Below are positions 1,155 through 39,150 of a stretch of DNA of 64,000 nt, piece by piece. Under the pieces are notes generated by a model. That model was given only the letters and a program-made list of their open reading frames with translations. It was not told where the DNA came from and searched no databases. Position 1 is the stretch's first letter, and the number at the start of each line of letters is the position of its first letter. The stretch is taken from positions 4,411 through 68,410 of the forward strand of contig JBIOKR010000002.1 of assembly GCA_044451945.1 (NCBI GenBank), written 5' to 3'. The DNA comes from Candidatus Lutacidiplasmatales archaeon. GTDB lineage: Archaea; Thermoplasmatota; Thermoplasmata; Lutacidiplasmatales; UBA184. A program made the translations under genes and the position numbers.

Positions 1155-1176
1155 CGGGTGCCCGGGTGGGAATCCC

Positions 1177-2786: not shown

Positions 2787-2823
2787 CGGCCGGGGTATTG
2801 CGCCCCGCGGCCCCTTGGGCGGC

Positions 2824-21775: not shown

Positions 21776-22425
21776 CGCGCCCGCTCCTCGAGCGCTGCGC
21801 CGCTGAGGCGGCCGGAACGTTCCTCCTCGTCGGGATAGGGACCGGAGCGATCGTCGCCGCGGCCAACGCCGGGGGCGTGTCCCAGTGGGTGATGGCCATC
21901 GCGTGGTTCGGGGCGGTCGCGCTCCCCGTCCTGGCGTTTGCGTTCGTGAGCGGCTCCCACATCAACCCGGCGGTCACCCTGAGCCTCGTCGCCGCGCGCC
22001 GATTTCCCCCGAGGGAGGCCCTGCCGTACGTCGGGGCGCAGCTCGTCGGTGCCTTTGCGGGCAGCGCCGTAATTTGGCTCGTCCTCGGGAACGCGGCCCA
22101 CCTGGGGGCCACCCTGCCGAGGAACGGGAACCTGCTCGCGACCTTCGCCCTCGAGTTCGCCTTCACCGCCCTGCTCATACTGACCGTGATGTTTCTCAGC
22201 ACCCCCGGAAAGATCCCCTCGCGATGGGAGCTGCTGCTCCCGGCGGGCGCTGTCGGGCTCTCCACATGGCTCATCGGACCCTGGACCGGCAGTTCCCTCA
22301 ATCCGGCGAGGACCGTCGCCCCGGCGGTGCTCTCGGGGGACTACGCCGGGATCTGGGTCTACTTCCTCGCCGTACCTCTGGCGGCGCTCGCCGTCGCCGT
22401 CACGTTCCGCAAGGCGGCGCCGTAG
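21772..22425 (+). CDS. MIP-family aquaglyceroporin (putative arsenite channel, AqpS-like)
   Basis: Two NPA boxes (HINPAV, SLNPAR) and 6 TM helices. TTG start overlaps the arsC stop (TTGA). Confidence 0.8.
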   Translation: MTRPLLERCAAEAAGTFLLVGIGTGAIVAAANAGGVSQWVMAIAWFGAVALPVLAFAFVSGSHINPAVTLSLVAARRFPPREALPYVGAQLVGAFAGSAVIWLVLGNAAHLGATLPRNGNLLATFALEFAFTALLILTVMFLSTPGKIPSRWELLLPAGAVGLSTWLIGPWTGSSLNPARTVAPAVLSGDYAGIWVYFLAVPLAALAVAVTFRKAAP

Positions 22426-22648
22426 CGCACGCGCTCGCCACCTCCGACCGCCGGGGGCCCGTCCCTTCGGGCTGCTTCCCCTGGAACCGGTGCGGACGAG
22501 CACCGCCCCCTTCCGCCGGGGTCCTAGCGTGGGCCCCGCCGCGTTGACGATAGGCCAGCTCTCGGCGAGCGCTGGCTGAAATCGGGTTACCGTCCGGGCC
22601 GGGCCCAACGCTACCTCGAGGTCGACGAGGACGGCCCACCGGCGGGGG

Positions 22649-23356
22649 CTAGTTCACCGCGAGGTTGGGTTTCTCGCCGAAGCCGGTCGCGCTCGGACGT
22701 CCGCTTCCGTTCAGGGAGAACCCTCTCAGGATCAACCATCCGGCGAGCGCCATCTCTTGGACCGCGATGGGCACGGCCAGAGCGTACTGGAAGCTGCCGA
22801 ACAGCCCCGTCAACCCCGCCCCGAACACGAGAACCGCGCCCGCCATCCCCCAGCCCGAGAGCCAGAGGGGAACGAGCCGGCTTCGGAAGAGGAGGTAGTA
22901 GAACAGCACAGCCCCGACCCCGAAGATGAGGGGGTCCGCGACGAACGCCCAGGTCCCGATTCCCTGCAACACGACCCCCGAGGTCGAGTACGATGGATCG
23001 GGTGGGGATCCCGCACCGACGTAGGCCTGACTCAGCGTGACCAGAAGGAGGGTTCCAACGGCACCTACGACCAGGATGACGGCTTCCACGACCCGGACGC
23101 CCAGGTACCCGGCGGCGATCCCTTCGTCATATCGGCGGAGGATGGGGAACAGGAAGGCGGCGATGAGGACAACGGCGAGCGCCGCTGTCAGTTGAAGCAG
23201 GGCGCCGGCCTTGACCTGGTCGGCATGGGCCGCCGCCTGGGTCAGGTAGTTCGAGGAGGTGCTCGGGGCGGTCAGCGAGGTCGCCGCCAGCGATGCGACC
23301 GTCGCGAGGACGAAGAGCCCTCCGACCACGATGGCGGTCTTCCGTGCGGCGTCCAT
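22649..23356 (-). CDS. Hypothetical polytopic membrane protein
   Basis: 235 aa with about 6 hydrophobic helices and no recognisable catalytic motif. Confidence 0.45.
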   Translation of the reverse strand: MDAARKTAIVVGGLFVLATVASLAATSLTAPSTSSNYLTQAAAHADQVKAGALLQLTAALAVVLIAAFLFPILRRYDEGIAAGYLGVRVVEAVILVVGAVGTLLLVTLSQAYVGAGSPPDPSYSTSGVVLQGIGTWAFVADPLIFGVGAVLFYYLLFRSRLVPLWLSGWGMAGAVLVFGAGLTGLFGSFQYALAVPIAVQEMALAGWLILRGFSLNGSGRPSATGFGEKPNLAVN

Positions 23357-23389
23357 GGCGACCTCGACGAGGGATCCCTCGTATCGCGT

Positions 23390-23671
23390 CTACGGGCGCT
23401 GGGCCCAGCCCTTGGCGTAGCTCGGGCCCCACCACATCCAGACCGCGCCCATCGTGCCTCCCAGGACGAGTGCCGAGACGAGGACGATGACCCCGCTCTG
23501 AAACAGCGTGAAGCCGGTGGCCCAGAACGCCACATACAGAAGCGAGAAGCTCAGCCACGCGATCGGAAGAACGATCGAGAACAGGACCCGTCGCCGGAAC
23601 CCTTGAAACCTCTCCCCCCACTCCCAGTCCGCATCGGCGCGCGCTCCGTGTGCGACTCCCGCTTCGGCCAT
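23390..23671 (-). CDS. Small membrane protein (hypothetical)
   Basis: Start taken at MAEAGV. Two to three TM helices (VLFSIVLPIAWLSFSLLYVAFW...). Confidence 0.3.
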   Translation of the reverse strand: MAEAGVAHGARADADWEWGERFQGFRRRVLFSIVLPIAWLSFSLLYVAFWATGFTLFQSGVIVLVSALVLGGTMGAVWMWWGPSYAKGWAQRP

Positions 23672-24047
23672 CGAAACCACCGAGATGGGATGTGAGGTCC
23701 CGCGGATAGGGCTCCCGTCGGTTCGAGTTGACCGACCGACGGTGGGGCACCGGAATGGCAAGGTGAGTGCATGCCGGACTGTGCAGGGAAGAACGGTCGA
23801 ATCCTGATACGGGCGTTTCCCCTGAGCGCTACGAGTCGCTGTCGGTCGGGGTTCGGCAATCCGCGCTTCCCGAGGGATATCCGCCCGAAGCCGCGGAGAC
23901 CGGCGGTTTGCGCCGGGGAATCCCCTCCCACCAGTTCATGCGGGCCGCGGAGGTGAGACCGAGGGAAACACCGGCATCTCGCCCTGTTTCGCCCCCTCTC
24001 TGTTCTCCCTTAAGCCGCGAATCCGGCATCGATGCCTCGACCTACCG

Positions 24048-24935
24048 ATGCTCGATCCTTCTCGCTGGGACGACGGGGCGATCCCGCTCGCTCCGCCGCT
24101 TCCCTCCCCGGAGCTCCTCGAGGAGCCTGACCTATCGGCACCGTCGCCGCCCCCGGAGGAGCTCGCCCGGATTGTCCGCAAGCGGCCGGGGGCGCGCCGA
24201 CGCAACCCGGCGACGCGCATCCTTCCCAGCGAACCGGCGCTCTTCGGCTGGCTCGCCGACCGTTTTTCCCCCGGGGAGGCGACCCTGTGGGCCGGCTCTT
24301 CCGCCGCGATCGAGCCGATGCTCGAGATGCTCTACGCCGGTTGCGCGCTCGCGGACGGGAGGGTCTCGCTGCTCGAGGGAGCGAACCGGTTCCATCCATA
24401 CCGCATCGGCGAGCGGGGCCGCAATCTCGGCGTCGCTCCCGAGGAGGTCCTCGAAAGGGTGCGGCTCGCCCGCGCGTTCACCGCCTACCAGCTGGTGGCG
24501 CTGGTCGACGCCTGGTCGAAGGAGGCCAAACGGAACCGGCCGACGCTGCTCGTCGCCCACGACCTTCCGGCGCTGTTCTTCACCGAGGAGGTCCCCGAGG
24601 CGGAGCGCGCTCCGCTCCTCACCTACGTTGCCGAGCGACTCTCGGAGGTCGTGAGCGAGACCGGTCTTCCGCTCCTCCTGACGCTCTCCGGCCCGCTCTC
24701 GCGCTTTCCCGGGCTCACGGAGAAGGGCCCGAGGTTCTTCGACTGGGTCCGGTTCCTGCCGGCCGGTGAGACCGGGATGAACGTCGAGGCGTTCCGCGAC
24801 GCTTCCCGACTGCGCTTGGTCACCCGGAGCGATGGGCAGCGCGGACTCGAGGAGTTCGCTTCCCAGGAGAATCAGGAGGTGATCATGTGGGGCGTACCGT
24901 CCCGACGTACCGCCAGGCGCTCGAGGAGCGGATGA
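24048..24935 (+). CDS. Hypothetical protein, possibly a RecA-superfamily (KaiC/RadB-like) homolog lacking a P-loop
   Basis: TLWAGSSAAIEPMLEMLYAGCALADGRVSLLE...TLLVAHDLPALFF resembles a RecA core with a degenerate Walker A. Confidence 0.35.
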   Translation: MLDPSRWDDGAIPLAPPLPSPELLEEPDLSAPSPPPEELARIVRKRPGARRRNPATRILPSEPALFGWLADRFSPGEATLWAGSSAAIEPMLEMLYAGCALADGRVSLLEGANRFHPYRIGERGRNLGVAPEEVLERVRLARAFTAYQLVALVDAWSKEAKRNRPTLLVAHDLPALFFTEEVPEAERAPLLTYVAERLSEVVSETGLPLLLTLSGPLSRFPGLTEKGPRFFDWVRFLPAGETGMNVEAFRDASRLRLVTRSDGQRGLEEFASQENQEVIMWGVPSRRTARRSRSG

Positions 24936-25227
24936 AACGGTGGGAGGCGTTCGGCCGGCTCCTCACGACGCCCGAGGAGAAGGAGGCGTTCGCGACGCTC
25001 GTCCAAGGCGCCCGACGCTACGTGGCCCAGGCGACGTACGTGGGGAGCCCGGACCTCCTCGAATCGATCCTCCTCTCCGTCCTCCTGGACATGGCCCGAC
25101 GGTTGCCGGCCGAGAGCCGGAGCGCCGCATGAGCCGCACGGGGGCCCCCGAGGGGACCGTCGCGCCGCGTCAAGCCGGCTTGACGCTCAGTTCATGAGAG
25201 GCCCGACCGCACCCGTGCGGTAGGAGC

Positions 25228-26331
25228 GTGGCCGAAGTGGGGCTGGTCGGAGGGTGGGCAGAGCGGATCCGGGTGCTGTGGACCCGGGACCCGAAGGGGA
25301 TGTCGATCGATCTATTGCGCGTCGGGATGGGGGTGGTGTGGGCGCTCAACCTGATCTTCATCCTCACCCCGAGCAACCAGTACTTCCCGATGTTCCAGTC
25401 GATGGCGAGCGGCTACGACCAGACCACGTTCGGCGGTCCGGGGTTCGCTGACTTCGTCGCCTCGTACCCTGTCTTCTTCGCGTGGGCGATCGCGATCGTC
25501 ACGGGCTATCTCGCGATCGCGTTCCTCGCCGGGTTCACGACCCGGCTCGCGTGCGTGCTGGGAGCGCTCGCGTCGATCGCATTCCTCCTGACGCAGTTCT
25601 ACACGACCTTCGCGCTCGACGGGAGCGGCACCGACGTCGGAGCCCACCCGCTCTACCTGCTCGTCTACGCAATCATGTTCACCGGCGGCGCCGGGCAGTA
25701 CTTCGCGATCGACCACTGGGTGTGGACGAGCGGAAACGCGCGGGTCCCCCGGATCTCCCGGTGGATCGCCGCGCCGCGCGACCTCCCATGCAACGCGAAT
25801 TGTCCGGCCGCAGGGATGCACGAGTCGCCGCGCGCGGCCGCGCCCGAGCCCGCTCGCCCCGTGCCGACCGTCTCCTCCGCCCCCCGGTCGAAGGGCCACT
25901 GGGTGCTCCCGATGGTCTCGGTGGTCGCGGCCCTCGGCCTGGCCTCCGCCGGCATCTTGGCGATGCACGCACCGACCGCCGCGCCGGGAGCCACCGACAT
26001 CTTCGTCCAGGACATCCAGATGACCATCGACTACGCCGGGAACGCGAGCCAAGGGGGGTTCGGCCCCTCGGTGCAGGACGGATGTTGGGCGTGCGCCACC
26101 CACCTGTCGCCCGGCACGACGCTCATCGCGATGGAGATGCTCACCGACAACCACAGCAGCCTTCCGATCACCGTGACCTCGATGGCGGTCGCCTCGCCGT
26201 TCGTGCTCTCGTCGGGTCCGCACTTCCCGAAGACCGTGCCCGCCGGTGCGATGTGGATGTTCGACATCTACCTCCAGGTCCCGACGACGCCGGGCCAGTA
26301 CACCGTCGACCTCGCCTTCACCACCGCGTAG
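25228..26331 (+). CDS. Membrane protein (DoxX-like N-terminal TM domain) with C-terminal extracellular Cys-containing domain
   Basis: Four N-terminal TM helices, a Pro/Ala linker, one more TM helix, then a soluble domain. Confidence 0.5.
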   Translation: MAEVGLVGGWAERIRVLWTRDPKGMSIDLLRVGMGVVWALNLIFILTPSNQYFPMFQSMASGYDQTTFGGPGFADFVASYPVFFAWAIAIVTGYLAIAFLAGFTTRLACVLGALASIAFLLTQFYTTFALDGSGTDVGAHPLYLLVYAIMFTGGAGQYFAIDHWVWTSGNARVPRISRWIAAPRDLPCNANCPAAGMHESPRAAAPEPARPVPTVSSAPRSKGHWVLPMVSVVAALGLASAGILAMHAPTAAPGATDIFVQDIQMTIDYAGNASQGGFGPSVQDGCWACATHLSPGTTLIAMEMLTDNHSSLPITVTSMAVASPFVLSSGPHFPKTVPAGAMWMFDIYLQVPTTPGQYTVDLAFTTA

Positions 26332-26972
26332 CGGGACCGCGCCGGGCCGATCGGTCAACTGCGGTTGAGCGGGGTGCGGCCGCGGGGAAACGCCTGCGGG
26401 GCCGACTCCTCCTGGCACGAGGGGGCCCGCGCAGTGCCGCGTGCCGTCGGGGAGGGCGAGGAGGGGAGGTGACGAGATTCGTGATCTCCGAGTCGGCCGC
26501 GCGGACCCGGGGGGGCTCGCGACCGCGTGGAGCGCGAGGAGCCGAGCCTCGATGCGTGGGAGAGTCCTGTCAGGGCCGAGAGGGTCGTGGCGGCACTGCA
26601 GATGATTCCCGGTGTTGCGCCGGGGTCGACCTCCGTTCGCAGGGAGGTCTGGATTATCGGAGACGAACCTCCTCCGGGGCGGGCGCCCTCCCGGCCGTCC
26701 GAGCACCGGACCGCTGCCTCCCGCTCGGACCGGCACCCTGAGGAACCCCGAATCCCGCCCCGGCAGCATCGAGTCGGGGCGGGCGAACAGCCGGTCGGCA
26801 GTCAGGCGGTGTTCATCGCCGCGATTTTCGACGCGACAGCGCGACGATCGGGATCCCACCGGAGTCTCCACCGTACCGGTGCGGTGGTCGAGCGCGATTG
26901 ACTTCCAGCTTATCCACTGAGTCCCTCCTGCCCGACTCAAGGGGTCCAAGCGGCCCCGAATTGGAGGAGAAC

Positions 26973-27707
26973 ATGGCTTTCACGCCGTTCGTGGACGACT
27001 TGGGCTTCATCGTCGCGCTGATCTTGGCCGCCGCCGGAGTGTTCACCTGGGTCTCGGTCCGGGCGTTCCTCGCGATCTTCCGGAACGACCCGAAGGCGTT
27101 GCGCGGGATCCTCAAGACATCGGCGGTCCCGGTGGGCACCATTGGGGTCACCAGCCTTCTCATGGGGCTCTACACCGAATTCACCTGGCCGTTCCTGCTC
27201 TCGGACGGACTGGGCTCGTATGACATCTTCTTCGGCGACGTCCTGATGATCTTCGCGATGGTGATGATCGTCTACTCGGTCGTCGCCTTCTTCGGCCTCA
27301 AGCTCGAGTACGCCGGCCTCTTCGCCCTCATCGGCGGGACGACCACCGCCTGGTACGGCTACTGGGGGTACACGACCCTCGTCAAGCCCGGCGTCCTCGG
27401 GCTGACGAAGGACCCTCTCGAGACCTTCCTCCTCTACCTCGCCTTCGCGGCCGCGGGCTTCTTCGCGCTCCCGGCCAGCCTCGCGGTCGACTGGTACCTC
27501 GAGCACCCCGGGCCGACCTGGACACCGTTCAGGTTCGCGCTCCGTCCGGTGGCGGAGATGACGGCGCCGGTCGAGGGGAGGTTCAAGCTTCCCATTTCGT
27601 TCTACCTGGCGACCGTCTGGTTCCCCCTCTTCGCCTTCTTGGCGTTCGTCGCAGCGTGGTTCTACATGGGGTCGATCCTTCCGGGTCACCTCACCAGCCC
27701 GCCCTGA
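26973..27707 (+). CDS. Multi-pass membrane protein (DUF981-like), paralog 2
   Basis: ATG 26973 inside ORF 26898..27707. Shares motifs with 8377..9153 (…LPGHLT at the C-terminus). Confidence 0.65.
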   Translation: MAFTPFVDDLGFIVALILAAAGVFTWVSVRAFLAIFRNDPKALRGILKTSAVPVGTIGVTSLLMGLYTEFTWPFLLSDGLGSYDIFFGDVLMIFAMVMIVYSVVAFFGLKLEYAGLFALIGGTTTAWYGYWGYTTLVKPGVLGLTKDPLETFLLYLAFAAAGFFALPASLAVDWYLEHPGPTWTPFRFALRPVAEMTAPVEGRFKLPISFYLATVWFPLFAFLAFVAAWFYMGSILPGHLTSPP

Positions 27708-28555
27708 GGGGAGGGCCTTCCGCGGCGGCTCCCGGGTGCCCCGGCTCCCCCGCCCCCGGAAGCCGTCCCCAGGTTGGGATGGCGCCCACGGCCTGCGTCA
27801 CGGGCCCCGAACATCGGCCGCTGCCCAATGGTCCGGGCCTCCGCCGGCTTCCCGCACCGGCGAGAGATCTCGAGCGACCGCCCCCGTGTCAAGGACAAAC
27901 CGGAGGCGGTCCCTTCCTATGGAATCGTCGGTGGCTACTGTGGGACGGGGGCATGCTCCGAGATCGCCGCGCCGGCGCCCTGTCACGCAGGCGACCCTCC
28001 TTCCGATGGTCCGACGCCGGTGGAGAGCGGATTCGACCCCTCCTACCCCCGGAACTCTCCCACATCCCCGGCGGGCGTCCTCGCGTCGGCGCCCGTCGCG
28101 GCTTGGAGACCTACCCCGAACCCGACGGCCCCTGCGCGGCGCCCTCCCTCGACACCAACGAGCGCTCCCTCGATGGCGTGCGGCTCTCCGAGGACCCCGC
28201 CACCCCGGCGACCGTTCGGTATCTCGAGGTCTCCCAGATGCAGCACCGCCGTTTCCTCCGGCGGCGCAGGCCCGGAAGCCGGAGGCGGCAACCGTTCTCG
28301 GAGAGATTCACTCGCCGAGGAGAGGGGGACGGGGACGGCGGCTAGGCCGGCGCCTCCGGGTATGGCCGTCGCGGGAGCTGCATCGGCAGATCGAGTGCAA
28401 GGCCGGGGAGCGGGGCGTCCCCGTTCTCAAGGGGAACCCCGCGTGCGCGAGGTGAGAACGAGGGAAACGGGAGCCCCTCGTGGCGTTTCGCCGCCTCTCC
28501 TCCCGGCTTCAAGTGGGCGGCCCGGGAATGCCGGTCCCTTCGGGCCCAGCGCTCC

Positions 28556-30871
28556 ATGCCGACCGCCTGCCTACTGGACATCTCCGACCGGCGCGACGGG
28601 ACCGGCGTCGTCCTGTGGGTGAAGGACCGCCGGACCGGAACGGTCACGTCCGAGCCGGTCGACTACCGGCCCCCGATCCTCATCGACGGTCCCCGCGCGC
28701 TGCTCGAGCGGGTCCGCAAGGATCTCGCCGCCTCGGAACGGATCCTCGAGGTCGACTGGACGACCCTCTCCCCCTCGCTCTTCGACCGTCGGCCGCGCCG
28801 GCTCCTCTCGGTCGTCGCCCGGCGCAACTTCGACCGTCGGAGGATCGCGGCGGAGGTCGACCGGGTCGGCGACTACCATCGGCTGACGCTCTACGACGTC
28901 GACCTCTCGGCGCCGCAGCTCTTCCATCTCATGCACGGCGTCTACCCGTTCGCCCCGGTCGTCCGGGAGGGAGGGCGCTGGGTCGCCACGGAGCGGGCCG
29001 AGACGGTCGACTTCGAGTTCCCGACCCTCAAAAGCGCCATGCTCCAGGTGACGCTCCAAGGGTACCGGCGGGGTGGCATCGCTCCCGGCGACCCGCCGAT
29101 CGGCGAGGTCCGGCTCGGGGACGCCACGCTGGCCGGGCCCGAGCGCGATCTCTTCGTGGAGCTGATGCGCGAACTCTCCCGACAGGAGCCGGACGTGCTG
29201 CTCACCGACGGGGGCGACGGCTTCGACGTGCCGCGCCTCTACCATCGGGCGCAGCTGAACGGGCTTTCGGACGAGCAGTTCTACCTGGGGCGGGAGAGCG
29301 CTTCGTTCCGGCCGACACGGCCGGCCCGCTCGTTCGAGACGTACGGGCAGGTCCTGCATCGGGACGCCGCGTTCCCGCTCCCGGGGCGCTTTCACATCGA
29401 CCGGGAGGATTCGTTCCTCTACGGGGACGCCGCCGTCGAGGGGCTCGTCGACGCGGCGCGGCTCTCCAGGCTCTCGTTGCAGACGGTCGCCCGCCAGTCG
29501 CCCGGGACCTGCTTCACCGCGATGGAGATGGCGCACGCCCTGGAGGACGGCGTCCACATCCCGTGGAAGAAGAACGAGCCCGAGCGGTTCAAGTCGGCGC
29601 GACGGCTCGTGGAGGCGGACCGCGGCGGCGTGATCTTCCTGCCGCCGGTCGGCGTGCACGATCTGGTCGACGAGTTCGATTTTGCGAGCCTCTTCCCGCA
29701 CATCATGGTGCGAAAGAACCTCTCGACCGAGACGCTCGACTGCCGGTGCTGTCCGAAAAGCCCGCTCGTCGTCCCGGGGCTCGGCTATCGCTCCTGCACG
29801 AAGCGCATCGGCCTCATCCCGAGGACGCTCGAGCCGCTCATCACCCGGCGCCTCGCGCTCAAGGCCCGCATGAAGGACAAAGGGCTCAGCAGCGAGGAGC
29901 GGGAGCGGGCGCGGCGGCGCGTCAAGATGCTGAAATGGATCCTCGTGACCTCCTTCGGCTACCAGGGATACCGCAACGCGCGGTTCGGCCGGATCGAGTG
30001 CCACGAGTCGATCAATGCCTACGCGCGCGAGCTCATCGCCGACCTCCTCCCGTGCGCGGAAGAAAGCGGGTACCGGGTGCTCCACGGCCTCGTCGACTCG
30101 CTGTGGCTCACGCCGATCGACCGCACGAAGGTCCCCGACGCCGAGGATTTCGCGCGGCGCATGAGCCGGCGCTTCGACATGCCGCTCGGCTACGAGGGGC
30201 GCTACCGGTGGGTCGTCTTCCTGCCGGCGGTCACGCACGGCCTCGGGGTGCCGAACCGGTACTACGGCCTCTACGAGTCGGGGGAGTTCAAGCTGCGCGG
30301 CATCGGATTGCGGCGGCACGACACCCCGACGCTCGTGCGAAGGTTCGAGACGGAGATCCTGAACGCGCTCTCCCGGGCGAAGGACGCGCCCGGGGTCCTC
30401 GAAGCGCTCCCGAAGGTCCTCGCCCGCGCGGACCTCTTTGCACGGGAGGTGAACCATGGCGGGTGGCCGCGGGAGGAGCTTCTGATCTCGCATCGTATCG
30501 GGCAGGACCCGGACGCCTTCGTCACGTTCACCGACAGCGTCGCCGCCATCCGGCAGCTCCAGGCGCTCGGCGCCTCGCGCTCCGCCGGGGAGACGGTGCG
30601 CTACCTCGTCCGGGACCGGCGCTCCCGATCCCTGAGGGACCGCGTCAAGGTCGCCGAGGCGCTCGAGGGAGATGAGTCGTACGACCCCGGTGCCTACCTG
30701 ACGCTGCTCGCCCGCTCGGGCGCCACGCTCCTCGCGCCGCTCGGCGTGAGCGAGGCCGGCCTCTTGGAGCGATGGCAGGTCGCGCCGCCCCCCGAGCGGG
30801 GCAGGTATCATTCTCCCGAACGGATGGGGCAGCGACGTTTGGAGCCCGAAGGAGCCTCGGCGGGGGCGTGA
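28556..30871 (+). CDS. Family B DNA polymerase homolog with degenerate motif C (possibly an inactivated PolB paralog)
   Basis: Exo II-like GGDGFDVPRLYHRA; motif A DFASLFPHIM; motif B KMLKWILVTSFGYQG. Motif C is HGLVDS instead of YGDTDS, so the first catalytic Asp is lost. Confidence 0.7.
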   Translation: MPTACLLDISDRRDGTGVVLWVKDRRTGTVTSEPVDYRPPILIDGPRALLERVRKDLAASERILEVDWTTLSPSLFDRRPRRLLSVVARRNFDRRRIAAEVDRVGDYHRLTLYDVDLSAPQLFHLMHGVYPFAPVVREGGRWVATERAETVDFEFPTLKSAMLQVTLQGYRRGGIAPGDPPIGEVRLGDATLAGPERDLFVELMRELSRQEPDVLLTDGGDGFDVPRLYHRAQLNGLSDEQFYLGRESASFRPTRPARSFETYGQVLHRDAAFPLPGRFHIDREDSFLYGDAAVEGLVDAARLSRLSLQTVARQSPGTCFTAMEMAHALEDGVHIPWKKNEPERFKSARRLVEADRGGVIFLPPVGVHDLVDEFDFASLFPHIMVRKNLSTETLDCRCCPKSPLVVPGLGYRSCTKRIGLIPRTLEPLITRRLALKARMKDKGLSSEERERARRRVKMLKWILVTSFGYQGYRNARFGRIECHESINAYARELIADLLPCAEESGYRVLHGLVDSLWLTPIDRTKVPDAEDFARRMSRRFDMPLGYEGRYRWVVFLPAVTHGLGVPNRYYGLYESGEFKLRGIGLRRHDTPTLVRRFETEILNALSRAKDAPGVLEALPKVLARADLFAREVNHGGWPREELLISHRIGQDPDAFVTFTDSVAAIRQLQALGASRSAGETVRYLVRDRRSRSLRDRVKVAEALEGDESYDPGAYLTLLARSGATLLAPLGVSEAGLLERWQVAPPPERGRYHSPERMGQRRLEPEGASAGA

Positions 30872-30948: not shown

Positions 30949-32430
30949 GTGGTTTCACGAGCCAAGGCCAAGCGGGTCGAGTCGCCGCGCCGCCGGGAGA
31001 CGCCCGCGGGGATCCGCGAGCAGCTTCTGGCGATCCGTGCCGTCATGGAGGAAGGTGGCACCGAGGGGACGGACCTCCTGGTGCGCGCGCTCTCCGACGC
31101 GCAGCCGGCGATCCGCCAGGCGGCCGTCATCGCCTTGGGCCACCTCCGGGTGCATGAGCACCGCACCGCCATCGAGGCGTGCCTCGATGACCCGGACCCG
31201 AACGTGAGGGCGAGCGCCGCCGAAGGCCTCGGAGCCCTCGGTCGCACGGAGAGCCGGGAGCGCCTCGAGATCGCCCTTCGGGACCCGGTCGACCGCGTCC
31301 GTGAGCAGGCGGCGTGGGCGCTCTGGTCGATCGGCGACGAGAAGGCCGTGGAGAAGCTGCTTCCGCTGCTCGACGACCCGGCGCCGGGAGTCCGATGGAG
31401 CGGCGCCACGGCGCTCGGTCGCCTTCGCACTCCCGAGGGGTTCGAGCGCCTCATCACGGCCCTCACCGACGAGAACGACCGGGTGCGCCGCGAAGCGATT
31501 CTTGGTCTCGGCCACGCCGGGGATCCCAGGGTCCCCGACCTGGTCCGTCCGTTCCTCTCCGACCCGGCGCGCAGGGTGCGCATCGCCGCCTGCGTGGTCT
31601 TGGGCCAGCATCGAGACCGGGCCTCGACCTCCCAACTCATCGACCGAGTACTCCACGACGACACGTGGGTCCTTCCGGCGGCCCTGGTGGCACTCGGCCG
31701 GATCGGCGACCCTGAGGCGATCCCGACCATCATCACGGCCGCCGACGACCGGGGCTCGTGGGTGCGCGTCTGCGCCCTTCACGCGCTCGGCGAGATGCGG
31801 GCCGCCGAAGGTCGGGAAGTCGCGCGCCGGCGCTTGCTCGATTCCCACTGGTCGGTCCGCGGAGCGGCCGCGGAGGCGCTCGGCCATCTCGGCACGACCG
31901 ACGACCTTTCGCTCCTTCGAGCGATGATCGAGGACCCGCACCCGTGGCCCCGCCGCGGGGCCATTTACGCCATCGCCTACTTAGGACTCAACGAGGCGGC
32001 GCCCCGGATCCGGGAGGAGCTGGGTCACCCTATCGCGGAGGTACGGCTCGCCGCCGCTTGGGCGCTCGGACGCCTGGGAGACGATGGGGCGAAGGAGACG
32101 CTCGCCGTCCTACTGCGGCAGGCGAAGCCGACTGTCGGTGAGCCCCTCTTGCTCGCTCAGGGCGATGGCGCGGTCAAGCTTCAGAGCGACGCGCTCGGGC
32201 GGATGTTCGACACGCTCGTCCAGGCGCTCGGTCGGCTCGCCGAGCGCAGCCCCGACCCGTTCGTCCTTCGCGCCCTCGAGGAGGCGCGCGTGAGGGTTCC
32301 GGAGGAGGAGCTCGATCGCCCCGCGCGCCTCCCGGCCCCCGAGGTCCGAGGCGGGCAGGACGTCCCGACGCTCCGCTCGATCTTCGACGCGGCCCTCGTG
32401 GCGGTCGAAGAAGACGAACTCGGATGCTGA
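30949..32430 (+). CDS. HEAT/PBS-lyase repeat protein
   Basis: More than 10 tandem ~31-aa repeats of the form DPDPNVRASAAEALGALG. GTG start with 'tcatatct' about 25 nt upstream. Confidence 0.7.
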   Translation: MVSRAKAKRVESPRRRETPAGIREQLLAIRAVMEEGGTEGTDLLVRALSDAQPAIRQAAVIALGHLRVHEHRTAIEACLDDPDPNVRASAAEGLGALGRTESRERLEIALRDPVDRVREQAAWALWSIGDEKAVEKLLPLLDDPAPGVRWSGATALGRLRTPEGFERLITALTDENDRVRREAILGLGHAGDPRVPDLVRPFLSDPARRVRIAACVVLGQHRDRASTSQLIDRVLHDDTWVLPAALVALGRIGDPEAIPTIITAADDRGSWVRVCALHALGEMRAAEGREVARRRLLDSHWSVRGAAAEALGHLGTTDDLSLLRAMIEDPHPWPRRGAIYAIAYLGLNEAAPRIREELGHPIAEVRLAAAWALGRLGDDGAKETLAVLLRQAKPTVGEPLLLAQGDGAVKLQSDALGRMFDTLVQALGRLAERSPDPFVLRALEEARVRVPEEELDRPARLPAPEVRGGQDVPTLRSIFDAALVAVEEDELGC

Positions 32431-33368
32431 GGGAGTTTCGCCCCTCGGACGCCGAGGCGTTCTTCCAACTGATGCGCTCCCAGTTCCCCGAGGAGGAGGC
32501 GCTCCTCGGCTCCCGTCCCGAGGGCTTGCGGGACGTCGTCCGCCGGGTCTATCGATGGGACTACCGCCTCGTCCTCGGCCTACTTCGGATCCTGGGCCGC
32601 CCCGTCTTTCGATTCTTCGTCGTGGAGGATTCGGGGAAGCTTGCCGGGGTCGCCCTGCTGACCTACACCCAGGAGGCCGGTTACATCAGCGAGGTCGTCG
32701 TGGATCCGGCGTATCGCCGTCGAGGGCACGCGCGACGCGTGGTGGAGGCATGCCTATCCGGGGCGAAGGCCAGCGGGCGGCGGTACGGAGTCCTCGACGT
32801 CCTTGTGGGGAACGCACCGGCACGGGCTCTCTACGACAAGCTCGGTTTCCAGCCGTTGCGCTCTAAGTCGTACATGGTCAAGGATCTCCCCGCGGGGCGC
32901 CGAGGGGCCGGGGCCGGCCTACCGAGGAACGGCCGAGCGTTCCGACGGGCCGACGCGGCCGCGCTCCAAAAGGTCCTCGAGCGGGACCTTCCGGACCGCG
33001 TCCTCAAGGTGCTGCCGGTCGAGCGGGGCGCATTCTCGGTCCCCCAGGTCGTCGCCTACGGACTCGGGGCGACGACCGACGCATGGGTCATCGATGTCGG
33101 ACGTGGAGCGGAGGCGTTCGTGCGGGCCTCCGTCAGCACGGCGATGGCCGCGGGCAACCTGACGTGCCCGGTCATCGGCCCCGGGGTCTCTGACGAGGGG
33201 GCGCGCCAGATGGTGGAGTATGGCCTCGGATGGATCGCGGAGCGCGGGGCCCCGCGGGTCCTCAGCGAAGTCCCCGATTACGCTCCACGAGCGAAAGCCG
33301 CCCTCGAAGCGGCCGGATTCGTCGCCTCGTACCCCCTCCTCACGCTCTACCGGGACCTTGGTGCCTGA
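32424..33368 (+). CDS. GNAT-family N-acetyltransferase
   Basis: ISEVVVDPAYRRRGHARRVVEACL is the acetyl-CoA binding motif A. Overlaps neighbouring genes at both ends. Confidence 0.75.
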   Translation: MLREFRPSDAEAFFQLMRSQFPEEEALLGSRPEGLRDVVRRVYRWDYRLVLGLLRILGRPVFRFFVVEDSGKLAGVALLTYTQEAGYISEVVVDPAYRRRGHARRVVEACLSGAKASGRRYGVLDVLVGNAPARALYDKLGFQPLRSKSYMVKDLPAGRRGAGAGLPRNGRAFRRADAAALQKVLERDLPDRVLKVLPVERGAFSVPQVVAYGLGATTDAWVIDVGRGAEAFVRASVSTAMAAGNLTCPVIGPGVSDEGARQMVEYGLGWIAERGAPRVLSEVPDYAPRAKAALEAAGFVASYPLLTLYRDLGA

Positions 33369-34692
33369 GCCGACGCCCCGGGGACTCGGGGTCGACGTCT
33401 ACCTGTTCCCCGCGGTCGTGGGGGGAGGCCTCGGGGACATCGAGGAGGTCCTTGCGGCCGGACGGAGCTTGGAACGCGCCGGGTTTCCCGTCACCCTCTA
33501 CCGGTCACCCGGCCGCACCCTTCCCCCTTCGGTCGATGGGCCTTGGGATTGGCCCGTGGGGATCCGACGGACACGTCGGATACGTCCGCGGAACCGAAGG
33601 GCGCTGACGGTCAGCGCCTGGTGGGGGGTTTGCGCGGCCCCCGGACGCGACGAGCCCCTCGGGCGCGCCGGGGCCTGGAGCCTGGAGGCTCGTGCCGTCG
33701 AGGCGACGTACGGGCCGGACGCGGTGATCCACGTGAGCTTCGAGGAGTTCGCCCGGACCCTGATGAGCCGAGAGCAGACCATCGAGCGGTATCGGGAAGG
33801 AGGAGTGCCGATCCGAGAGATCGCACGACGGATGCGCCGCCCTGCCTCACGAAGGGAGGTCGTCCGATTCCACGAAGCCTACCGACGCTTTCGGGGATTC
33901 GACCGGCCGGACGTCCTCCACCTCTTCGCCTCGTTCGCCCCGTCGCCCGGATTCCGCCGCGAATTCCCGGAGGCGGTCCAGACCGGTCCGTTGTGGCCGG
34001 GTCGCAAGCGAACCGTTCGAGCCCATGGGACGAAAGTGGTTCGGCCGAGGGATTGGGTATGGTACGCGTCCCCGTCGAGTTCTGCGCTCCTGATCCCGCA
34101 GGTCCTGACGGGCCTATCGGCGTCACGCCGTACGACTCGCCTCTTCGTCGGACCCCGGATGCCTGCAACTCCCATACCAGAAGGTGGCCGAGTGCGCGTC
34201 GAGCCACTCCCCGTCGAGGCCGCCGCCGATTGGCAGCGACGGTTCGACTCGGCCGACCTGAGGATCGTGACCGGGAGTCGGACCCTGCTCGAAGCGCTAG
34301 AGCACCGGCTGCCGTTCCTCTACTTCAACGGGGTCATCGGGAGGGGGCAGAAGTTGCGTCGACATCGCCCGGAGAAGATCCAGGCATTGCTCGTCGCTTG
34401 GAAGCGGCAGGGTGTCGATCCCCGGTGGCGACGTGACCTTGCCAACTTTGCCTCCGGCCGGCAGGTTAGTGAGATCGTCCGTCGTGCGGCGGAGGACCCG
34501 GCGTGGTGCTCCCGATTCCCTCGGGGCGTGGAGATTACGGGGTATCGAGCTCCCTTCCACGACGCCGGAGAGCTTCTCCCGCAGATCGCCACCCGCTTCG
34601 CGCGTGCTGCCGGTGCGGCACAATTGGTCGCCGATATCCGCTTTGAAGGGCACCGATTCGCGCCGGCCCTTCGCGGGGAGATTTCCCGATAA
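33361..34692 (+). CDS. Hypothetical protein, GT-B glycosyltransferase-like (MurG/PseG-like C-terminal domain)
   Basis: ADLRIVTGSRTLLEALEHRLPFLYF resembles the GT28 C-terminal sugar-nucleotide pocket. GTG/TTG start overlaps the GNAT stop. Confidence 0.4.
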   Translation: MPEPTPRGLGVDVYLFPAVVGGGLGDIEEVLAAGRSLERAGFPVTLYRSPGRTLPPSVDGPWDWPVGIRRTRRIRPRNRRALTVSAWWGVCAAPGRDEPLGRAGAWSLEARAVEATYGPDAVIHVSFEEFARTLMSREQTIERYREGGVPIREIARRMRRPASRREVVRFHEAYRRFRGFDRPDVLHLFASFAPSPGFRREFPEAVQTGPLWPGRKRTVRAHGTKVVRPRDWVWYASPSSSALLIPQVLTGLSASRRTTRLFVGPRMPATPIPEGGRVRVEPLPVEAAADWQRRFDSADLRIVTGSRTLLEALEHRLPFLYFNGVIGRGQKLRRHRPEKIQALLVAWKRQGVDPRWRRDLANFASGRQVSEIVRRAAEDPAWCSRFPRGVEITGYRAPFHDAGELLPQIATRFARAAGAAQLVADIRFEGHRFAPALRGEISR

Positions 34693-34777
34693 ACCGACCC
34701 CGGTCGAGCGCTGCTCTAAGCCCCCCGCCCCATGCCCTATTTCCGCTGGATGAACAATCCCCCCAAGAGGCATTCAA

Positions 34778-35245
34778 TTGACCGCCTTGGGCAAAGTTGT
34801 GGTCTTCGGGCCGGGCGAAGGCAACGAGTTTCGGATCGAGGCGGACCGTTTCACCACCAAGGGCGATGCGTCCCAGCGCTCCGCACTGTTCTCGGTCGTG
34901 GAGTACGAAGGCGCGCCCGGGGTGCCAGGCCCACCCCCCCATGTGCACTGGGCTTTCGAGGAGGCATGGTTCATTCTCGAGGGGGAGGTGACCTTCACCT
35001 CGCAGGGCAAGCAGATCGCTGCGAGGAAGGGGACCTACCTGTTCGTCCCACGGGGCGTTCCGCACACCTTCGAGGTGGCGGGCAAGAAGCCGGCGCACTG
35101 GGTCGGCATCTTCTCCCCCGGGCGGTACGTGGGCTTGGTGGAGGAACTGGGAGCATTTCTCCCGGGGGGAAGACCACCGGAGCTCGAGGGGATCGTTCGG
35201 CTCTTCGCAAAGTACGATTCGGAGATGGTCAGCGGCAAGAGGTGA
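34778..35245 (+). CDS. Cupin-domain protein
   Basis: Two-His cupin motifs (PHVHWAFEEAWFILEGE... and PRGVPHTF). Confidence 0.7.
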   Translation: MTALGKVVVFGPGEGNEFRIEADRFTTKGDASQRSALFSVVEYEGAPGVPGPPPHVHWAFEEAWFILEGEVTFTSQGKQIAARKGTYLFVPRGVPHTFEVAGKKPAHWVGIFSPGRYVGLVEELGAFLPGGRPPELEGIVRLFAKYDSEMVSGKR

Positions 35246-35728
35246 GTTCGCAGGGCGTGCGGCCCCGCGGCCACGCCCGAACGGGGGTCGCGATCTTCGT
35301 GGTGAGACGGAATCCCCGATACCGCCGCCAAGGCGAGGAACCCGCCATCACCTCTCCGGGAAATCTCCCCGAGGTCTACGACATCCTCACCCAGCAGGGA
35401 GACGAGTCGTCCACGGGCAAGTGCCCGGAAGCTCGGTCCCGGGTCGGTCGAGGCTCGACTCGACATGATCCCCAGTGTCACCCGTTTTCGGTCCCTCCCG
35501 CTCGGAGCGAGGGCCGCCGTTTCTCCCGCGTGGATGCGCTCCGATAGGTCCACGCCCGGGAGAACGGATTCCCCCTCACGGACGCCCACGTTCGAGAAGG
35601 TTCCGGACGTGGTGCGTTTCATCCGAAAAGTCGGACGAATCCTGGATCGACCCCGCCGGCGATCGGTCGCGATTATCGACCTCGTTCCCCCTCGGTAACG
35701 TGGGCGGGCGGGGACAATAAGTTTGGCT

Positions 35729-35745
35729 ACCCTAATAATTAGGGT
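35729..35745. promoter_or_regulatory. 17-bp perfect palindrome ACCCTAATAATTAGGGT: candidate DtxR/SirR operator overlapping the BRE/TATA region of the sirR-znuABC promoter
   Basis: The palindrome is immediately followed by tttatatg (35750..35757) and the sirR ATG at 35780 (TATA at -30, leaderless). It resembles the TTAGG..CCTAA half-sites of iron boxes. Confidence 0.5.
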
Positions 35746-35779
35746 GTGGTTTATATGTACGCGTTCCCTCGAAGAATCC

Positions 35780-36202
35780 ATGGAGACGCTTCAGAAGCTC
35801 AGCCGTCGCCAGATCGAGGCGCTCCAGCTCATCGGCCGTGCCGCCACGCCGGAGCGGGGCGTCGCCCTCAATGTGATCGCCGCCGGTCTCGAGGTCCGAT
35901 CACCCTCGGCCTTGGGCCATGTGACGATGCTCGAGAACTTCGGCCTCGTCGTGCGGCACCGGGGCAAGACTCGTCTGACCCAGAAGGGGCAATCGACCCT
36001 GTTGGAGTATCTGCGGCATCACCGGGTCGCGGAGAATCTGTTCAGCAAACTCGGGCTGTCCCCAGACGACGTCTGCGCCGCGGCCCATGAGGTGGACCTT
36101 GCGATCTCCCACAAGACCATCGAGCGTCTATGCGAGGCCGAGAGGCATCCCAGCGTCTGTCCCCACGGGGCGCCCATTCCGCCCTGTTCGAAGGAGATCT
36201 AG
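35780..36202 (+). CDS. DtxR/SirR/MntR-family metal-dependent transcriptional repressor
   Basis: N-terminal HTH (LSRRQIEALQLIGRAA...) and metal-site residues (HEVDLAISHK, C-terminal CPHG). A TATA box lies at -30 and a palindromic operator just upstream. Confidence 0.75.
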   Translation: METLQKLSRRQIEALQLIGRAATPERGVALNVIAAGLEVRSPSALGHVTMLENFGLVVRHRGKTRLTQKGQSTLLEYLRHHRVAENLFSKLGLSPDDVCAAAHEVDLAISHKTIERLCEAERHPSVCPHGAPIPPCSKEI

Positions 36203-36214
36203 CGGACCCGCGCC

Positions 36215-37240
36215 ATGGCTCGGTCGGAGACGCCGGTACCGCCGCCTCGGCACGACCCGCCGATCGCCCGGTCCTCCTCCCCGCCGTGGATCCCGCCGGC
36301 CAAGCCTCTGCCCGTGGGGCGTATCGCGGCGGTGACGGCCGCGATTGTCGTTGTGATGGGCACGCTGGTGGCGGTGCATGCCATCCATCCGGCGAACTTT
36401 CCGGCCAACACCGGGAGCGTCGTGCCAATCGTCGCCGCCGAGAACTTCTGGGGAAGCTTGGTCGCTCAACTGGGCGGCTCGCACGTGAGCGTGCTCAGCA
36501 TCGTGTCGGACCCCAACGCCGACCCGCACGAATACGAGAGCAACACTTCGGACGCCATCGCCGTCTCTGACGCTCGGCTGGTCATCGAGAACGGTGCCGG
36601 CTACGACAACTGGTGCTCCCAGCTGGTCTCCGCCAGCTCCTCCCCGGGTCAGCGGGTGCTCAACGTCGCCGATCTCCTCGGAAAGCCGGCGGGGTCGAAC
36701 CCCCACTTCTGGTACGGCCAATCGTACGTCAACACGACGATCGCCGCAATGTACTCCGACCTGATCGCGATCGACCCCATCGACCAGGCGTACTACCAGC
36801 AACAGTACGCCGCGCTCAACACGTCGCTCGCCCCCGTCTGGTCCGATGAGGCGTACCTCCACGCCCACTGGGGTGGCGGGAAGGCCCAGATCGCCTCGAC
36901 GGAGAGCATCTTTGAGTACATGGCGAACTCGAGCGGGCTCGACCTCGTCTCCCCGGTGGCGTTCATGTCGGCGGTCAGCGAGGGGAACGACCCACCGACC
37001 CAGAGCGTCACCGAGTTCCAGGACCAGCTCGAGAGCGGGAACGTGAGCGTGCTCGTCTACAACAAACAAACGGTAACTCACCTGACCGACCAGATGCAGG
37101 CGATCGCCGCCCAATACAACGTACCGAGCGTCGGCGTGACCGAGACGATAGAGCCCTCGGGCGAGACGTTCGAGTTCTGGATGGCCTCCGAACTGTCCGC
37201 CCTAACGAGCGCGTTGGACCAGAAGGTGCCCGTCTCGTGA
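36215..37240 (+). CDS. Metal (Zn/Mn) ABC transporter substrate-binding protein, TroA/ZnuA family
   Basis: Cluster-9 SBP fold with signal anchor and a DPHEYE metal-binding segment. Confidence 0.75.
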   Translation: MARSETPVPPPRHDPPIARSSSPPWIPPAKPLPVGRIAAVTAAIVVVMGTLVAVHAIHPANFPANTGSVVPIVAAENFWGSLVAQLGGSHVSVLSIVSDPNADPHEYESNTSDAIAVSDARLVIENGAGYDNWCSQLVSASSSPGQRVLNVADLLGKPAGSNPHFWYGQSYVNTTIAAMYSDLIAIDPIDQAYYQQQYAALNTSLAPVWSDEAYLHAHWGGGKAQIASTESIFEYMANSSGLDLVSPVAFMSAVSEGNDPPTQSVTEFQDQLESGNVSVLVYNKQTVTHLTDQMQAIAAQYNVPSVGVTETIEPSGETFEFWMASELSALTSALDQKVPVS

Positions 37241-38139
37241 AGGCCGCCGAAACCCCCCACGAAAGAGCCACCGCCTTCGCTCCCGGCACGGCCGTCATCT
37301 CCGCCGAAGGGGTGGAGGTCGGCTACGAGGGCCGGCCCGTCTGGCGGGACGGAAGCTTCCGCATCGAGCCCGGAGAGTTCGTCGCCGTCATCGGCCCGAA
37401 CGGCGCCGGCAAGACCACGCTCTTCCGTCTCCTGCTCGGGCTCAACCGCCCGGCGGCCGGGCGCCTCACGGTGTTCGGCGACGCGCCGCGCCGGGGCAAC
37501 CCCGACATCGGCTATGTCCCCCAGCGGCACTCGATCGACTACGAGACCCACGTGCGGTGCTTCGAGCTGGTCCGGCTGGGATATTCAGGGCATCGTTGGG
37601 GCTTCCCCCTCTCGACCCGGACGGAGCGGGAAGCGGCCTGGAAGGCGCTCCACGCGGTCGGAGCGACAGCGCTCGCCGACCGGCCCCTGAGCGCGCTCTC
37701 CGGAGGCGAGCTCCAGCGCATCTTCCTCGCGGAAGCGCTCGTGAGCGACCCTAGGTTGCTCCTCCTGGACGAGCCGCTTTCGAACCTCGATCTTCGCCGG
37801 GCGGAGGAGCTCGTCGAGCTCGTCAGCGAGGTCGTCCGGTCTCGGGGTGTCGCCGCCCTCCTCGTGGCCCACGACATCAACCCGCTCATCCCGTACCTCG
37901 ACAAGATCATCTACGTAGCGAACGGCCGCGTCGCCGTGGGGCGGCCGAGCGAAGTGCTCACCTCCGAGCGGTTGACCAAGCTCTACGGGGTGCACGTCGA
38001 GGTCCTCAGGGACTCCCGGGGAAACTTCGTCATCGTCGGCGGCGACGGACACACCGAGGGGGAGATCGGGGGTGGTGAGGACCACCACGAAGGGGAGGTC
38101 CAGGGAGGCACCCTCGGGCGAGGGAGGAGGGGTCCATGA
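37237..38139 (+). CDS. Metal ABC transporter ATP-binding protein (ZnuC-like)
   Basis: Walker A GPNGAGKTT, signature LSGGELQR, Walker B LLLDEP. Confidence 0.85.
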   Translation: MKAAETPHERATAFAPGTAVISAEGVEVGYEGRPVWRDGSFRIEPGEFVAVIGPNGAGKTTLFRLLLGLNRPAAGRLTVFGDAPRRGNPDIGYVPQRHSIDYETHVRCFELVRLGYSGHRWGFPLSTRTEREAAWKALHAVGATALADRPLSALSGGELQRIFLAEALVSDPRLLLLDEPLSNLDLRRAEELVELVSEVVRSRGVAALLVAHDINPLIPYLDKIIYVANGRVAVGRPSEVLTSERLTKLYGVHVEVLRDSRGNFVIVGGDGHTEGEIGGGEDHHEGEVQGGTLGRGRRGP

Positions 38140-39038: not shown

Positions 39039-39150
39039 AGAACCCGAAAAGGCACGTCATCGCTCGGCGGAAATGGCGGGAGAGAGCAGCGGTCTCTGCC
39101 GGCCCGACCGTGCCAGAACCCCTTAACAGGGGTCGCTCGTTGAGGGGCAC

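Follow-up and report, generated by a model that had tools for sequence, protein, structure and literature searches.

A Dpo2-type PolB2 gene of a Thermoplasmata archaeon, separated from iRadA and PPB2 by a lineage-specific insertion and preceded by a second copy of the putative operon operator

Among the family B DNA polymerases (PolBs) of archaea, Rogozin et al. recognised a conserved clade of "apparently inactivated" enzymes in which YGDTD is altered at two or more positions, the distal Asp persists and nothing corresponds to Exo I (PMC2527604), and Feng et al. noted that YxDTD "is mutated into HxxxD in PolB2" (PMC8764526). The Sulfolobus enzyme Dpo2 is a robust polymerase that has no exonuclease activity and is efficient at extending termini that are mismatched or lie opposite a lesion (PMC8764526); damage induces it, and induced mutagenesis needs it (PMC7390963). 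PolB2 is predicted to be encoded in an operon with an ATPase-dead RadA homolog (iRadA) and a ~90-aa protein, arCOG07300 or PPB2, that has a conserved N-terminal 'MGRT' arm (PMC4104785, PMC11791011), and the same two papers cover the operon and a modelled pentameric complex. In Sulfolobales a damage-response element, 5'-ANTTTC-3', is bound by Orc1-2 and controls dpo2, the dpo2 genes being Orc1-2-dependent and damage-induced in Sulfolobus (PMC6061795), and orc1/cdc6 genes are enriched in archaeal polB2 neighbourhoods (PMC11791011). Here we analyse 64,000 nucleotides of a Candidatus Lutacidiplasmatales archaeon (contig JBIOKR010000002.1 of assembly GCA_044451945.1; hereafter the window) that hold a Dpo2-type PolB2 gene at 28556..30871 on the plus strand. 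Weighing all the evidence, we consider it probable that this is the PolB2 gene of a Thermoplasmata archaeon whose operon has been split by an insert and that a second copy of the operon's operator now stands before PolB2.

To place the locus, we scanned GTDB species genomes, which gave 277 PolB2 loci, and examined the best 80 of these (60-67% identity), all from Thermoplasmata-type metagenome-assembled genomes (MAGs; one is labelled "bacterium"), with the neighbouring genes located by tblastn. The order iRadA-PPB2-PolB2-HEAT-GNAT was found to be contiguous in ~75 of the 80 species loci. In 79 related loci the space between the end of the PPB2 match and the start of PolB2 is 50 nt at the median and never exceeds 103 nt, a single locus (L037, 1233 nt) excepted. 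In the window the same gap measures 3450 nt. Here iRadA (24048..24935, plus strand) and PPB2 (24887..25132, plus strand) are followed by a lineage-specific insertion of 3.4 kb at 25133..28555, between PPB2 and PolB2, and similarity to the DNA of relatives resumes exactly at the PolB2 ATG. iRadA, which is adjacent to PolB2 in relatives, lies on the PolB2 strand 3.6 kb upstream of the polymerase gene. An operon of three genes whose order is near-universal in relatives is split by an insertion in this genome.

The right-hand end of this insertion resembles the DNA that precedes the operon. Comparison of the window with itself by blastn matched 28449-28499 to 23950-24000 with an E-value of 8.7e-5. 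The first of these two elements (P1, 23950..24014, plus strand) is located upstream of iRadA and consists of GAGGTGAGACCGAGGGAAAC-N16-GTTTCGCCCCCTCTC followed by the TATA-like box CTTAAG, and the second (P2, 28449..28513, plus strand), 43-107 nt upstream of the PolB2 ATG, consists of GAGGTGAGAACGAGGGAAAC-N16-GTTTCGCCGCCTCTC followed by CTTCAAG. When aligned, the two give GAGGTGAGA[C/A]CGAGGGAAAC - 16 nt - GTTTCGCC[C/G]CCTCTC, with arms identical at 19/20 and 14/15 positions and a spacer identical at 7/16. Selection on both copies is suggested because the arms are conserved while the spacer has diverged. The box stands 17-18 nt after the repeat in both copies, and the start codon follows 34 nt further on at iRadA and 43 nt further on at PolB2. 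Outside the ~65-nt element, the sequences that precede P1 and P2 showed no similarity to each other.

The same element accompanies the operon across the relatives, in which the DNA upstream of iRadA carries [GT]G[AG]AAC-N14-18-GTTTC and, ~18 nt further on, CTTTAGAG or CTTAAG. A loose version of the pattern (at most 2 mismatches) is present in 73 of the 76 loci that have sequence upstream of iRadA, and these sequences resemble one another strikingly. Many relatives have the spacer CCGTTCYCGG, the element occurs at no other position in ~1.6 Mb of flanking DNA, and relatives have one site per locus. An operator profile built from 74 relatives only, with the window excluded, was run against both strands of the 64 kb and returned exactly two sites of equal score, 23961-23998 (E 0.007) and 28461-28497 (E 0.0073); likewise, GGAAAC-N8-24-GTTTC occurs in the 64 kb at P1 and P2 only, against 0.25 occurrences expected. 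These results point to the last ~110 bp before PolB2 as a second copy of the operon's putative operator-promoter module, which would now serve the stranded polymerase gene. Two membrane-protein genes and two long GC-rich stretches without coding signal, 3.4 kb in all, have been inserted between PPB2 and PolB2, and P2 would give PolB2 a promoter of its own that answers to the regulator of iRadA-PPB2. P2 could have originated by tandem duplication and reciprocal loss, or by insertion and ectopic copying of ~65-100 bp, both of which give the observed order. We also considered the loss of a Shine-Dalgarno sequence upstream of PolB2 as a mark of a first cistron and rejected it, as SD-like sequences occur in only 12 of 73 relatives, which is below background.

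The polymerase gene itself is intact. The 771-aa open reading frame (ORF) is present as a previous sequence-only reading had described it, and its guanine-plus-cytosine (GC) content at third codon positions (GC3) is 0.88-0.98 along its length, as for other genes of the window (0.92 overall). PolB2 matched Pfam DNA_pol_B (PF00136) at 4e-16 and solved Thermococcales PolB structures at a HMMER E-value of 2e-33, and its top NCBIfam models (NF004418 and NF004416, 395 and 365 bits) lie more than 250 bits above those for PolB 'DNA polymerase I', which reach ~110 bits or less. About 940 homologs were retrieved. An identical protein is recorded for a Candidatus Lutacidiplasmatales MAG, and the next best, with 63-69% identity and lengths of 765-836 aa, also belong to MAGs of Thermoplasmata. 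We positioned the motifs by HMMER alignments to KOD PolB and judged invariance in an alignment of 34 orthologs. Motif A (29678-29707, plus strand), D375-FASLFPHIM, lies opposite KOD DFRSLYPSII, so that D375 corresponds to D404; motif B (29933-29989, plus strand), K460-WILVTSFGY, lies opposite K487-ILANSxYGY, with K460, V464 and F467 at the places of K487, N491 and Y494; and the Exo II-like GDGFDVPRL lies opposite GDNFDFAYL. The three motifs recognised earlier all align with KOD PolB. So does motif C (HGLVDS; 30083-30100, plus strand): H510-G-L-V-D514-S stands opposite KOD Y-S-D-T-D-G. Tyr and the first Asp have given way to other residues, whereas both metal-binding aspartates, D375 of motif A and the distal D514 of motif C, persist, and since it aligns in this way HGLVDS is the true motif C with its first Asp lost, as had been proposed; no intact YxDTDS is present elsewhere in the 771-aa protein. 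H510, G511, D514, S515, D375 and K460 are invariant in the 34 orthologs, as are R568-Y569, which aligns with KxY, and A354-D355-R356-G357-G358. The hallmark of replicative PolBs, an intact YxDTD(S) motif C together with intact Exo I/II/III carboxylates, is not found in the window PolB2.

Judged by its motifs and its partner genes, the window polymerase is an ordinary member of the known archaeal PolB2 (Dpo2-type) family, and the protein itself offers nothing new: it is one more member of a catalogued family. The description of the gene as an inactivated archaeal PolB paralog had therefore named the right family (PolB2; PMC2527604), but that family is now regarded as active, on the strength of Sulfolobus Dpo2 (PMC8764526, PMC7390963). 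By analogy with that enzyme, the window PolB2 would polymerise without proofreading and would extend primer ends that are mismatched or lie opposite a lesion, and it would act in complex with iRadA and a PPB2 trimer. Our data show family membership, by motifs and partner genes, the split of the operon and the duplication of the conserved element; that the enzyme is active, that the complex forms, that the promoter functions and that DNA damage induces expression we infer. Pfam scans of most of the longer ORFs of the 64-kb window revealed no other DNA polymerase, a canonical PolB or PolD included.

The exonuclease active site is disrupted. We read its motifs from an hhalign alignment of the family profile to the verified sequence of 1TGO (Tgo PolB), in which confidence is low around Exo I. 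There, FDIET of 1TGO stands opposite a gap and V143-A144-T145, so that the acidic pair is absent in this low-confidence stretch, and HMMER gave no alignment of the Exo I region to PolB structures. In Exo II, N210 of 1TGO is replaced by G219 and D215 is kept as D224, and in Exo III, Y311 is replaced by F287 and D315 is kept as D291. As far as the alignment tells, the exonuclease site is dead, with Exo I DxE lost, the Exo II Asn changed to Gly and the Exo III Tyr to Phe. An AlphaFold2 model of PolB2 (mean predicted local distance difference test score, pLDDT, of 82) was superposed by Foldseek on the 9N, KOD, Tgo and Pfu PolBs over the full length, with a template modelling (TM) score of ~0.7 at ~20% identity; no solved PolB2 structure was among the structure matches. 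The protein had been thought shorter than replicative archaeal PolBs, a claim that did not hold: the Thermococcales enzymes KOD, Tgo and 9N measure 773-775 aa, and the window PolB2 is therefore not short.

Two genes make up the coding part of the insertion. The first (25228..26331, plus strand; 367 aa, GC3 0.93) encodes a predicted membrane protein of no family, with no Pfam or NCBIfam match, the only relative found being a 55% identical protein on a 3.2 kb metagenome contig. It is followed by the first GC-rich stretch without coding signal (26332..26972, 641 bp, flat codon-position GC), which has no Pfam match on its ORFs and no Rfam match. The second gene (26973..27707, plus strand; annotated ATG at 26973, 244 aa) encodes a DUF981 membrane protein (Pfam DUF981, 2.9e-21). 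DUF981 is common in Thermoplasmata, with homologs that are 78% identical; three relatives each have a different set of genes around it, and none of these sets is that of the window. The 80 loci have neither inserted gene within 10 kb of their PolB2. A 16-nt palindrome, ACCG[C/T]ACC[C/G]GTGCGGT, occurs twice in the insertion, at 25206-25221, 7 nt upstream of the gene for the 367-aa protein, and at 26870-26885, 88 nt upstream of the DUF981 ATG; it has no third occurrence in the window, where chance would give 0.32 matches, is missing from all 88 related loci, and may be a shared operator of the two inserted genes. The junction between PPB2 and PolB2 is occupied in another Thermoplasmata species as well: L037, the locus with the 1233-nt gap, carries there an IS605-type TnpB gene (8590-10008; OrfB_IS605 and Cas12f1-like TNB domain), and it has no second operator copy upstream of PolB2.

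Downstream of DUF981 the insertion ends in DNA that we likewise could not assign to any gene. The sequence-only reading had found no credible ORF in 27708..28555, and we agree: this right-hand end of the 3.4 kb insertion has a GC content of 73% and flat codon-position GC, its ORFs have no Pfam match, and a concatenated six-frame query against 5.8 billion proteins gave no homolog at E<=1e-3. Up to the beginning of P2 (27708..28448) it is GC-rich and devoid of detectable coding, RNA-family or repeat content. In that interval Rfam gave nothing at gathering thresholds nor at E<=1, and no tRNA and no notable tandem repeats were present. A phmmer search of a 282-aa ORF (27774..28622) against 1.84 billion representatives returned 0 matches, and blastx against 1646 proteins from 83 related loci revealed no pseudogene remnant. 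When compared by blastx and blastn with the DUF981 neighbourhoods, the interval showed the DUF981 gene itself as the sole match, and tblastn into it with iRadA, PPB2, DUF72, the neighbouring proteins of relatives and the IS605 TnpB of L037 found nothing, nor was related sequence detected in the 88 loci. A tblastx run without composition correction produced ~53,000 compositional false matches and was discarded. The suggestion that the interval is a decayed gene or an element boundary was thus right in that it is the end of an insertion, but no gene remnant can be detected in it and its last ~110 bp are the copy of the operon promoter/operator. Such a non-coding stretch had also been held to be unusual for a compact archaeal genome, which it is not here: low-periodicity segments of at least 300 bp take up ~23% of the window, and the genome is therefore less compact than had been assumed. 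The two gaps in the insertion are the longest and among the most GC-rich of the low-periodicity stretches, most others having a GC content of 0.60-0.68. Besides 26332-26972, stretches of 0.6-1.4 kb without codon periodicity lie at 33421-34890 and 52471-53190.

Several features weigh against a PolB2 that is maintained and served by its own operator copy, and they are best considered together with the possibility that the gene, cut from its operon and promoter and poorly expressed, is on its way to becoming a pseudogene with P2 as a non-functional relic. The operon is split, and the TATA-like box of P2 reads CTTCAAG and not CTTAAG or CTTTAGAG, a one-base insertion that could weaken it. Residues 3-5 of PolB2 are T-A-C where orthologs have a nearly invariant D-G-W, which removes the nearly invariant G4 and W5. 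At columns that are otherwise invariant the protein shows 7 changes of its own, one of the highest counts observed (other orthologs have 0-8). The 16-nt spacers of P1 and P2 share only 7/16 positions, and the profile E-values of both operator copies are modest (0.007), such that position and flank identity also carry the case. These points are met by a 771-codon ORF that is intact and has the GC3 of other genes, by catalytic and family-invariant residues that are all kept, by private substitutions that are mostly conservative and are outnumbered in another ortholog, which has 8, and by P2 arms that look as though they were under selection while the spacer diverged. On present evidence the PolB2 gene shows no sign of decay, its ORF being intact and all family-invariant residues kept, and we regard a nascent pseudogene as unlikely. 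A different origin had been raised in the sequence-only reading, namely that the gene is a diverged PolB of mobile-element origin; the element could be a casposon, pipolin, virus or plasmid, with the GC-rich interval as its boundary. A long stretch without coding signal does adjoin the gene, and a TnpB gene does sit at the same PPB2/PolB2 junction in L037. However, orthologs occur in 277 GTDB loci with the same chromosomal neighbours (ATP synthase, DUF72, HEAT, GNAT, LSM and a pterin-binding enzyme) in the 80 examined, Pfam scans revealed no integrase, Cas1 or transposase around PolB2 or the insertion, and no target duplications, terminal inverted repeats or convincing flanking direct or inverted repeats were found around either. 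Moreover, the insertion has no similarity to phage and plasmid records, GC content and codon bias are those of the rest of the window, and motif C is the PolB2 signature and not the intact YxDTDS expected of an active polymerase. Because chromosomal synteny is conserved across 80 species loci we exclude a mobile-element origin, for which we see hardly any chance.

What the interval 27708..28448 represents is a separate matter. It might specify a structured RNA not yet described, or an orphan protein of atypical composition, such as the 282-aa ORF at 27774..28622 or the product of a frame-shifted gene. None of the three forward frames is interrupted over 690-850 bp, there is weak coding-like GC at 28020-28380 in the PolB2 frame (GC3 of 0.82-0.90, above GC1, which exceeds GC2), and the GC content of 73% exceeds the 0.60-0.68 typical of intergenic DNA in the window. 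Yet at 73% GC chance alone yields long ORFs, no frame reaches the GC3 of a real gene over its length, and the translations are rich in Arg, Pro, Gly and Ala, with no Pfam match and no homolog in two very large searches; on the RNA side, the empty Rfam result at E<=1 is joined by a folding z-score for 27708-28555 of -1.47 on both strands, and nothing related occurs in the 88 loci. We doubt, on this balance, that the interval is a functional gene or RNA. Closer to an even chance, though still short of it, is that at least one gene came with the rearrangement that split the operon (e.g. a tandem duplication followed by reciprocal loss) and has since decayed completely, leaving the interval without function save for the promoter copy. 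Its GC content of 73% would fit decayed coding DNA, being as high as in coding DNA with codon periodicity lost, a similar second stretch (26332..26972) lies in the same insertion, and the order P-iRadA-PPB2-[insert]-P-PolB2 is what duplication and reciprocal deletion would leave. Set against this are the lack of residual similarity to iRadA, PPB2, DUF72, TnpB or any protein, and the fact that the sequences before P1 and before P2 are unlike outside the ~65-nt element.

The partner genes upstream of the insertion have the features expected of them. iRadA (295 aa) is a RadA/Rad51 homolog (Pfam Rad51, 25.9 bits at a cutoff of 22) that is 57-64% identical to the gene directly upstream of PPB2-PolB2 in relatives, and a Walker A GK[ST] is absent from its translation. 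A PIP-like (PCNA-interacting-protein-like) sequence, QRGLEEF, is found ~25 residues from its C-terminus. PPB2 (81 aa) is of the arCOG07300 type, and its N-terminus, (V->M)GRTVPTYRQ, is the 'MGRT' arm described in PMC11791011; by tblastn it is 89% identical to the PPB2 of a relative (L001) whose gene has a precomputed PF26485 (DUF8156) match, and a direct Pfam scan of the window PPB2 gave no match. iRadA and PPB2 overlap by 49 nt (24887-24935), as in relatives, and a strong Shine-Dalgarno sequence, AGGAGGTGAT, lies within iRadA (24862-24886), 4 nt before the PPB2 GTG. Downstream of PolB2, a HEAT-repeat protein gene (30949..32430, plus strand) and a GNAT acetyltransferase gene (32424..33368, plus strand), both recognised by Pfam, occupy the place that they have after PolB2 in most of the 80 loci, and these neighbours (~494 aa and ~314 aa) may share the functional unit of PolB2. 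We considered whether the HEAT protein is an AlkD-like DNA glycosylase, but this is unsupported: the Pfam DNA_alkylation match is marginal (22.1 bits) and the PDB matches are to generic HEAT and alphaRep proteins.

Further out, synteny with relatives is broken outside the operon too (21772-24047 and 33369-39150). A DUF72 gene is near PolB2 in 70 of 83 related loci, upstream of iRadA, but the window lacks it altogether and has MIP-channel and DUF4386 genes in its place (21772-24047); on the other side, the GNAT and M29 peptidase genes, near neighbours in relatives, are separated by a ZnuABC-type transporter (36215-39038). The other genes of the window are ordinary chromosomal ones and include gyrase A, a class I tRNA synthetase, ABC transporters and pilus genes. 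Of the relatives examined, the two closest have the series DUF72, a variable gene, a Rad51-like gene (290-295 aa), DUF8156 (84-88 aa), PolB2, a 494-aa protein and GNAT. A few related loci depart from the common arrangement or have peculiarities of their own. L083 is rearranged, with PPB2 at 481-702, PolB2 at 750-3038, and iRadA (6270-5587, minus strand) and the operator downstream of PolB2. L055 (PolB2 at 3876-6191) has no iRadA or PPB2 within 3.8 kb upstream or 8.9 kb downstream and carries a partial operator-like sequence, reversed, ~130 nt upstream of PolB2. L003 encodes at 1-2651 an A-type ATP synthase catalytic subunit with an intein and a LAGLIDADG endonuclease (precomputed Pfam Intein_splicing and LAGLIDADG_3). 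L019 (DAIDCO010000015.1), labelled 'bacterium isolate clean3188', holds a full Thermoplasmata-type iRadA-PPB2-PolB2-HEAT-GNAT locus, and its label is probably wrong.

What is modestly new at this locus is a conserved operator together with its duplication in a rewired operon. The split operon with a second element before PolB2 constitutes a natural experiment, and it argues that selection keeps co-regulation of these genes and not their adjacency or translational coupling. A conserved upstream element also gives a handle on the control of DNA-damage tolerance genes outside Sulfolobales, a question left open in the Orc1-2 literature (PMC6061795), and with the operator profile the regulon could be delineated in complete Thermoplasmata genomes. 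Tentatively, GGAAAC-N16-GTTTC and its TATA-like box could be the DNA-damage-response operator of this large Thermoplasmata lineage, read by an Orc1/Cdc6-type or other dedicated regulator, with a logic and perhaps a half-site (GTTTC) related to ANTTTC/Orc1-2 of Sulfolobales; the module would have been copied before the stranded polymerase when the operon was split, keeping the three mutasome subunits co-regulated. Pfam scans found no Orc1/Cdc6 gene in the 64-kb window. If this proposal is true, the genome shows a natural rewiring that keeps mutasome subunits co-regulated.

Compared with Dpo2 of Saccharolobus islandicus and S. solfataricus (PMC2527604, PMC4104785, PMC8764526, PMC11791011), the window PolB2 shares the family B fold, the HxxxD motif C, the loss of Exo I, and a gene set with an ATPase-dead RadA homolog and a ~85-aa PPB2 with an MGRT N-terminus; DUF72 in the neighbourhood is a further likeness, although it is seen in the relatives (70/83) and not in the window. 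A conserved D(K/R) after a flexible loop may be shared as well: D355-R356 is matched to S. islandicus 253-DK-254 by position only, after the loop 342-348, whose pLDDT is <50 in the AlphaFold2 model. In the published models D(K/R) touches the arm of PPB2, and iRadA is bound by the segment in front of it. Unlike the Sulfolobus enzymes, which are described as the smallest PolB2s with a strongly reduced Exo domain, the window PolB2 is full-size at 771 aa, with a complete though inactive exonuclease domain. The first Asp has become Leu or Ile in an HG[IL]VDS context, differing from Dpo2, and in contrast to Dpo2 loci 3.4 kb of DNA separate the gene in this genome from iRadA-PPB2, and a copy of the upstream element stands before it. 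The closest solved structures are those of the replicative euryarchaeal PolB3 type (KOD, Tgo, 9N and Pfu), with the same domain order, a length of 773-775 aa, a TM score of ~0.7 over the whole chain, and motifs A and B and the distal motif C Asp that align. Identity to PolB3 is, however, ~20-25%; YxDTD and the Exo I DxE are intact in PolB3 and not in the window PolB2, N491 of motif B is replaced by Val, and PolB3 is unlinked to iRadA/PPB2.

The regulatory element compares in a similar way with that of Sulfolobales. Like ANTTTC, it is a short (N)GTTTC element a few tens of bases 5' of the start codon of the PolB2 operon; unlike ANTTTC, it is an inverted pair, GGAAAC-N16-GTTTC, with a conserved spacer, upstream of a TATA-like box, and the base before GTTTC is C or T and not A. 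By this analogy we treat the likeness of the GTTTC half-site to ANTTTC/Orc1-2 as a lead. Finally, the Escherichia coli Pol V mutasome (UmuD'2C-RecA) is, following the models of PMC11791011, a purely functional analogue of the system, a multi-subunit, damage-inducible translesion polymerase with a RecA-family partner, although the catalytic subunit of Pol V belongs to family Y and not B and has no sequence relationship to PolB2.

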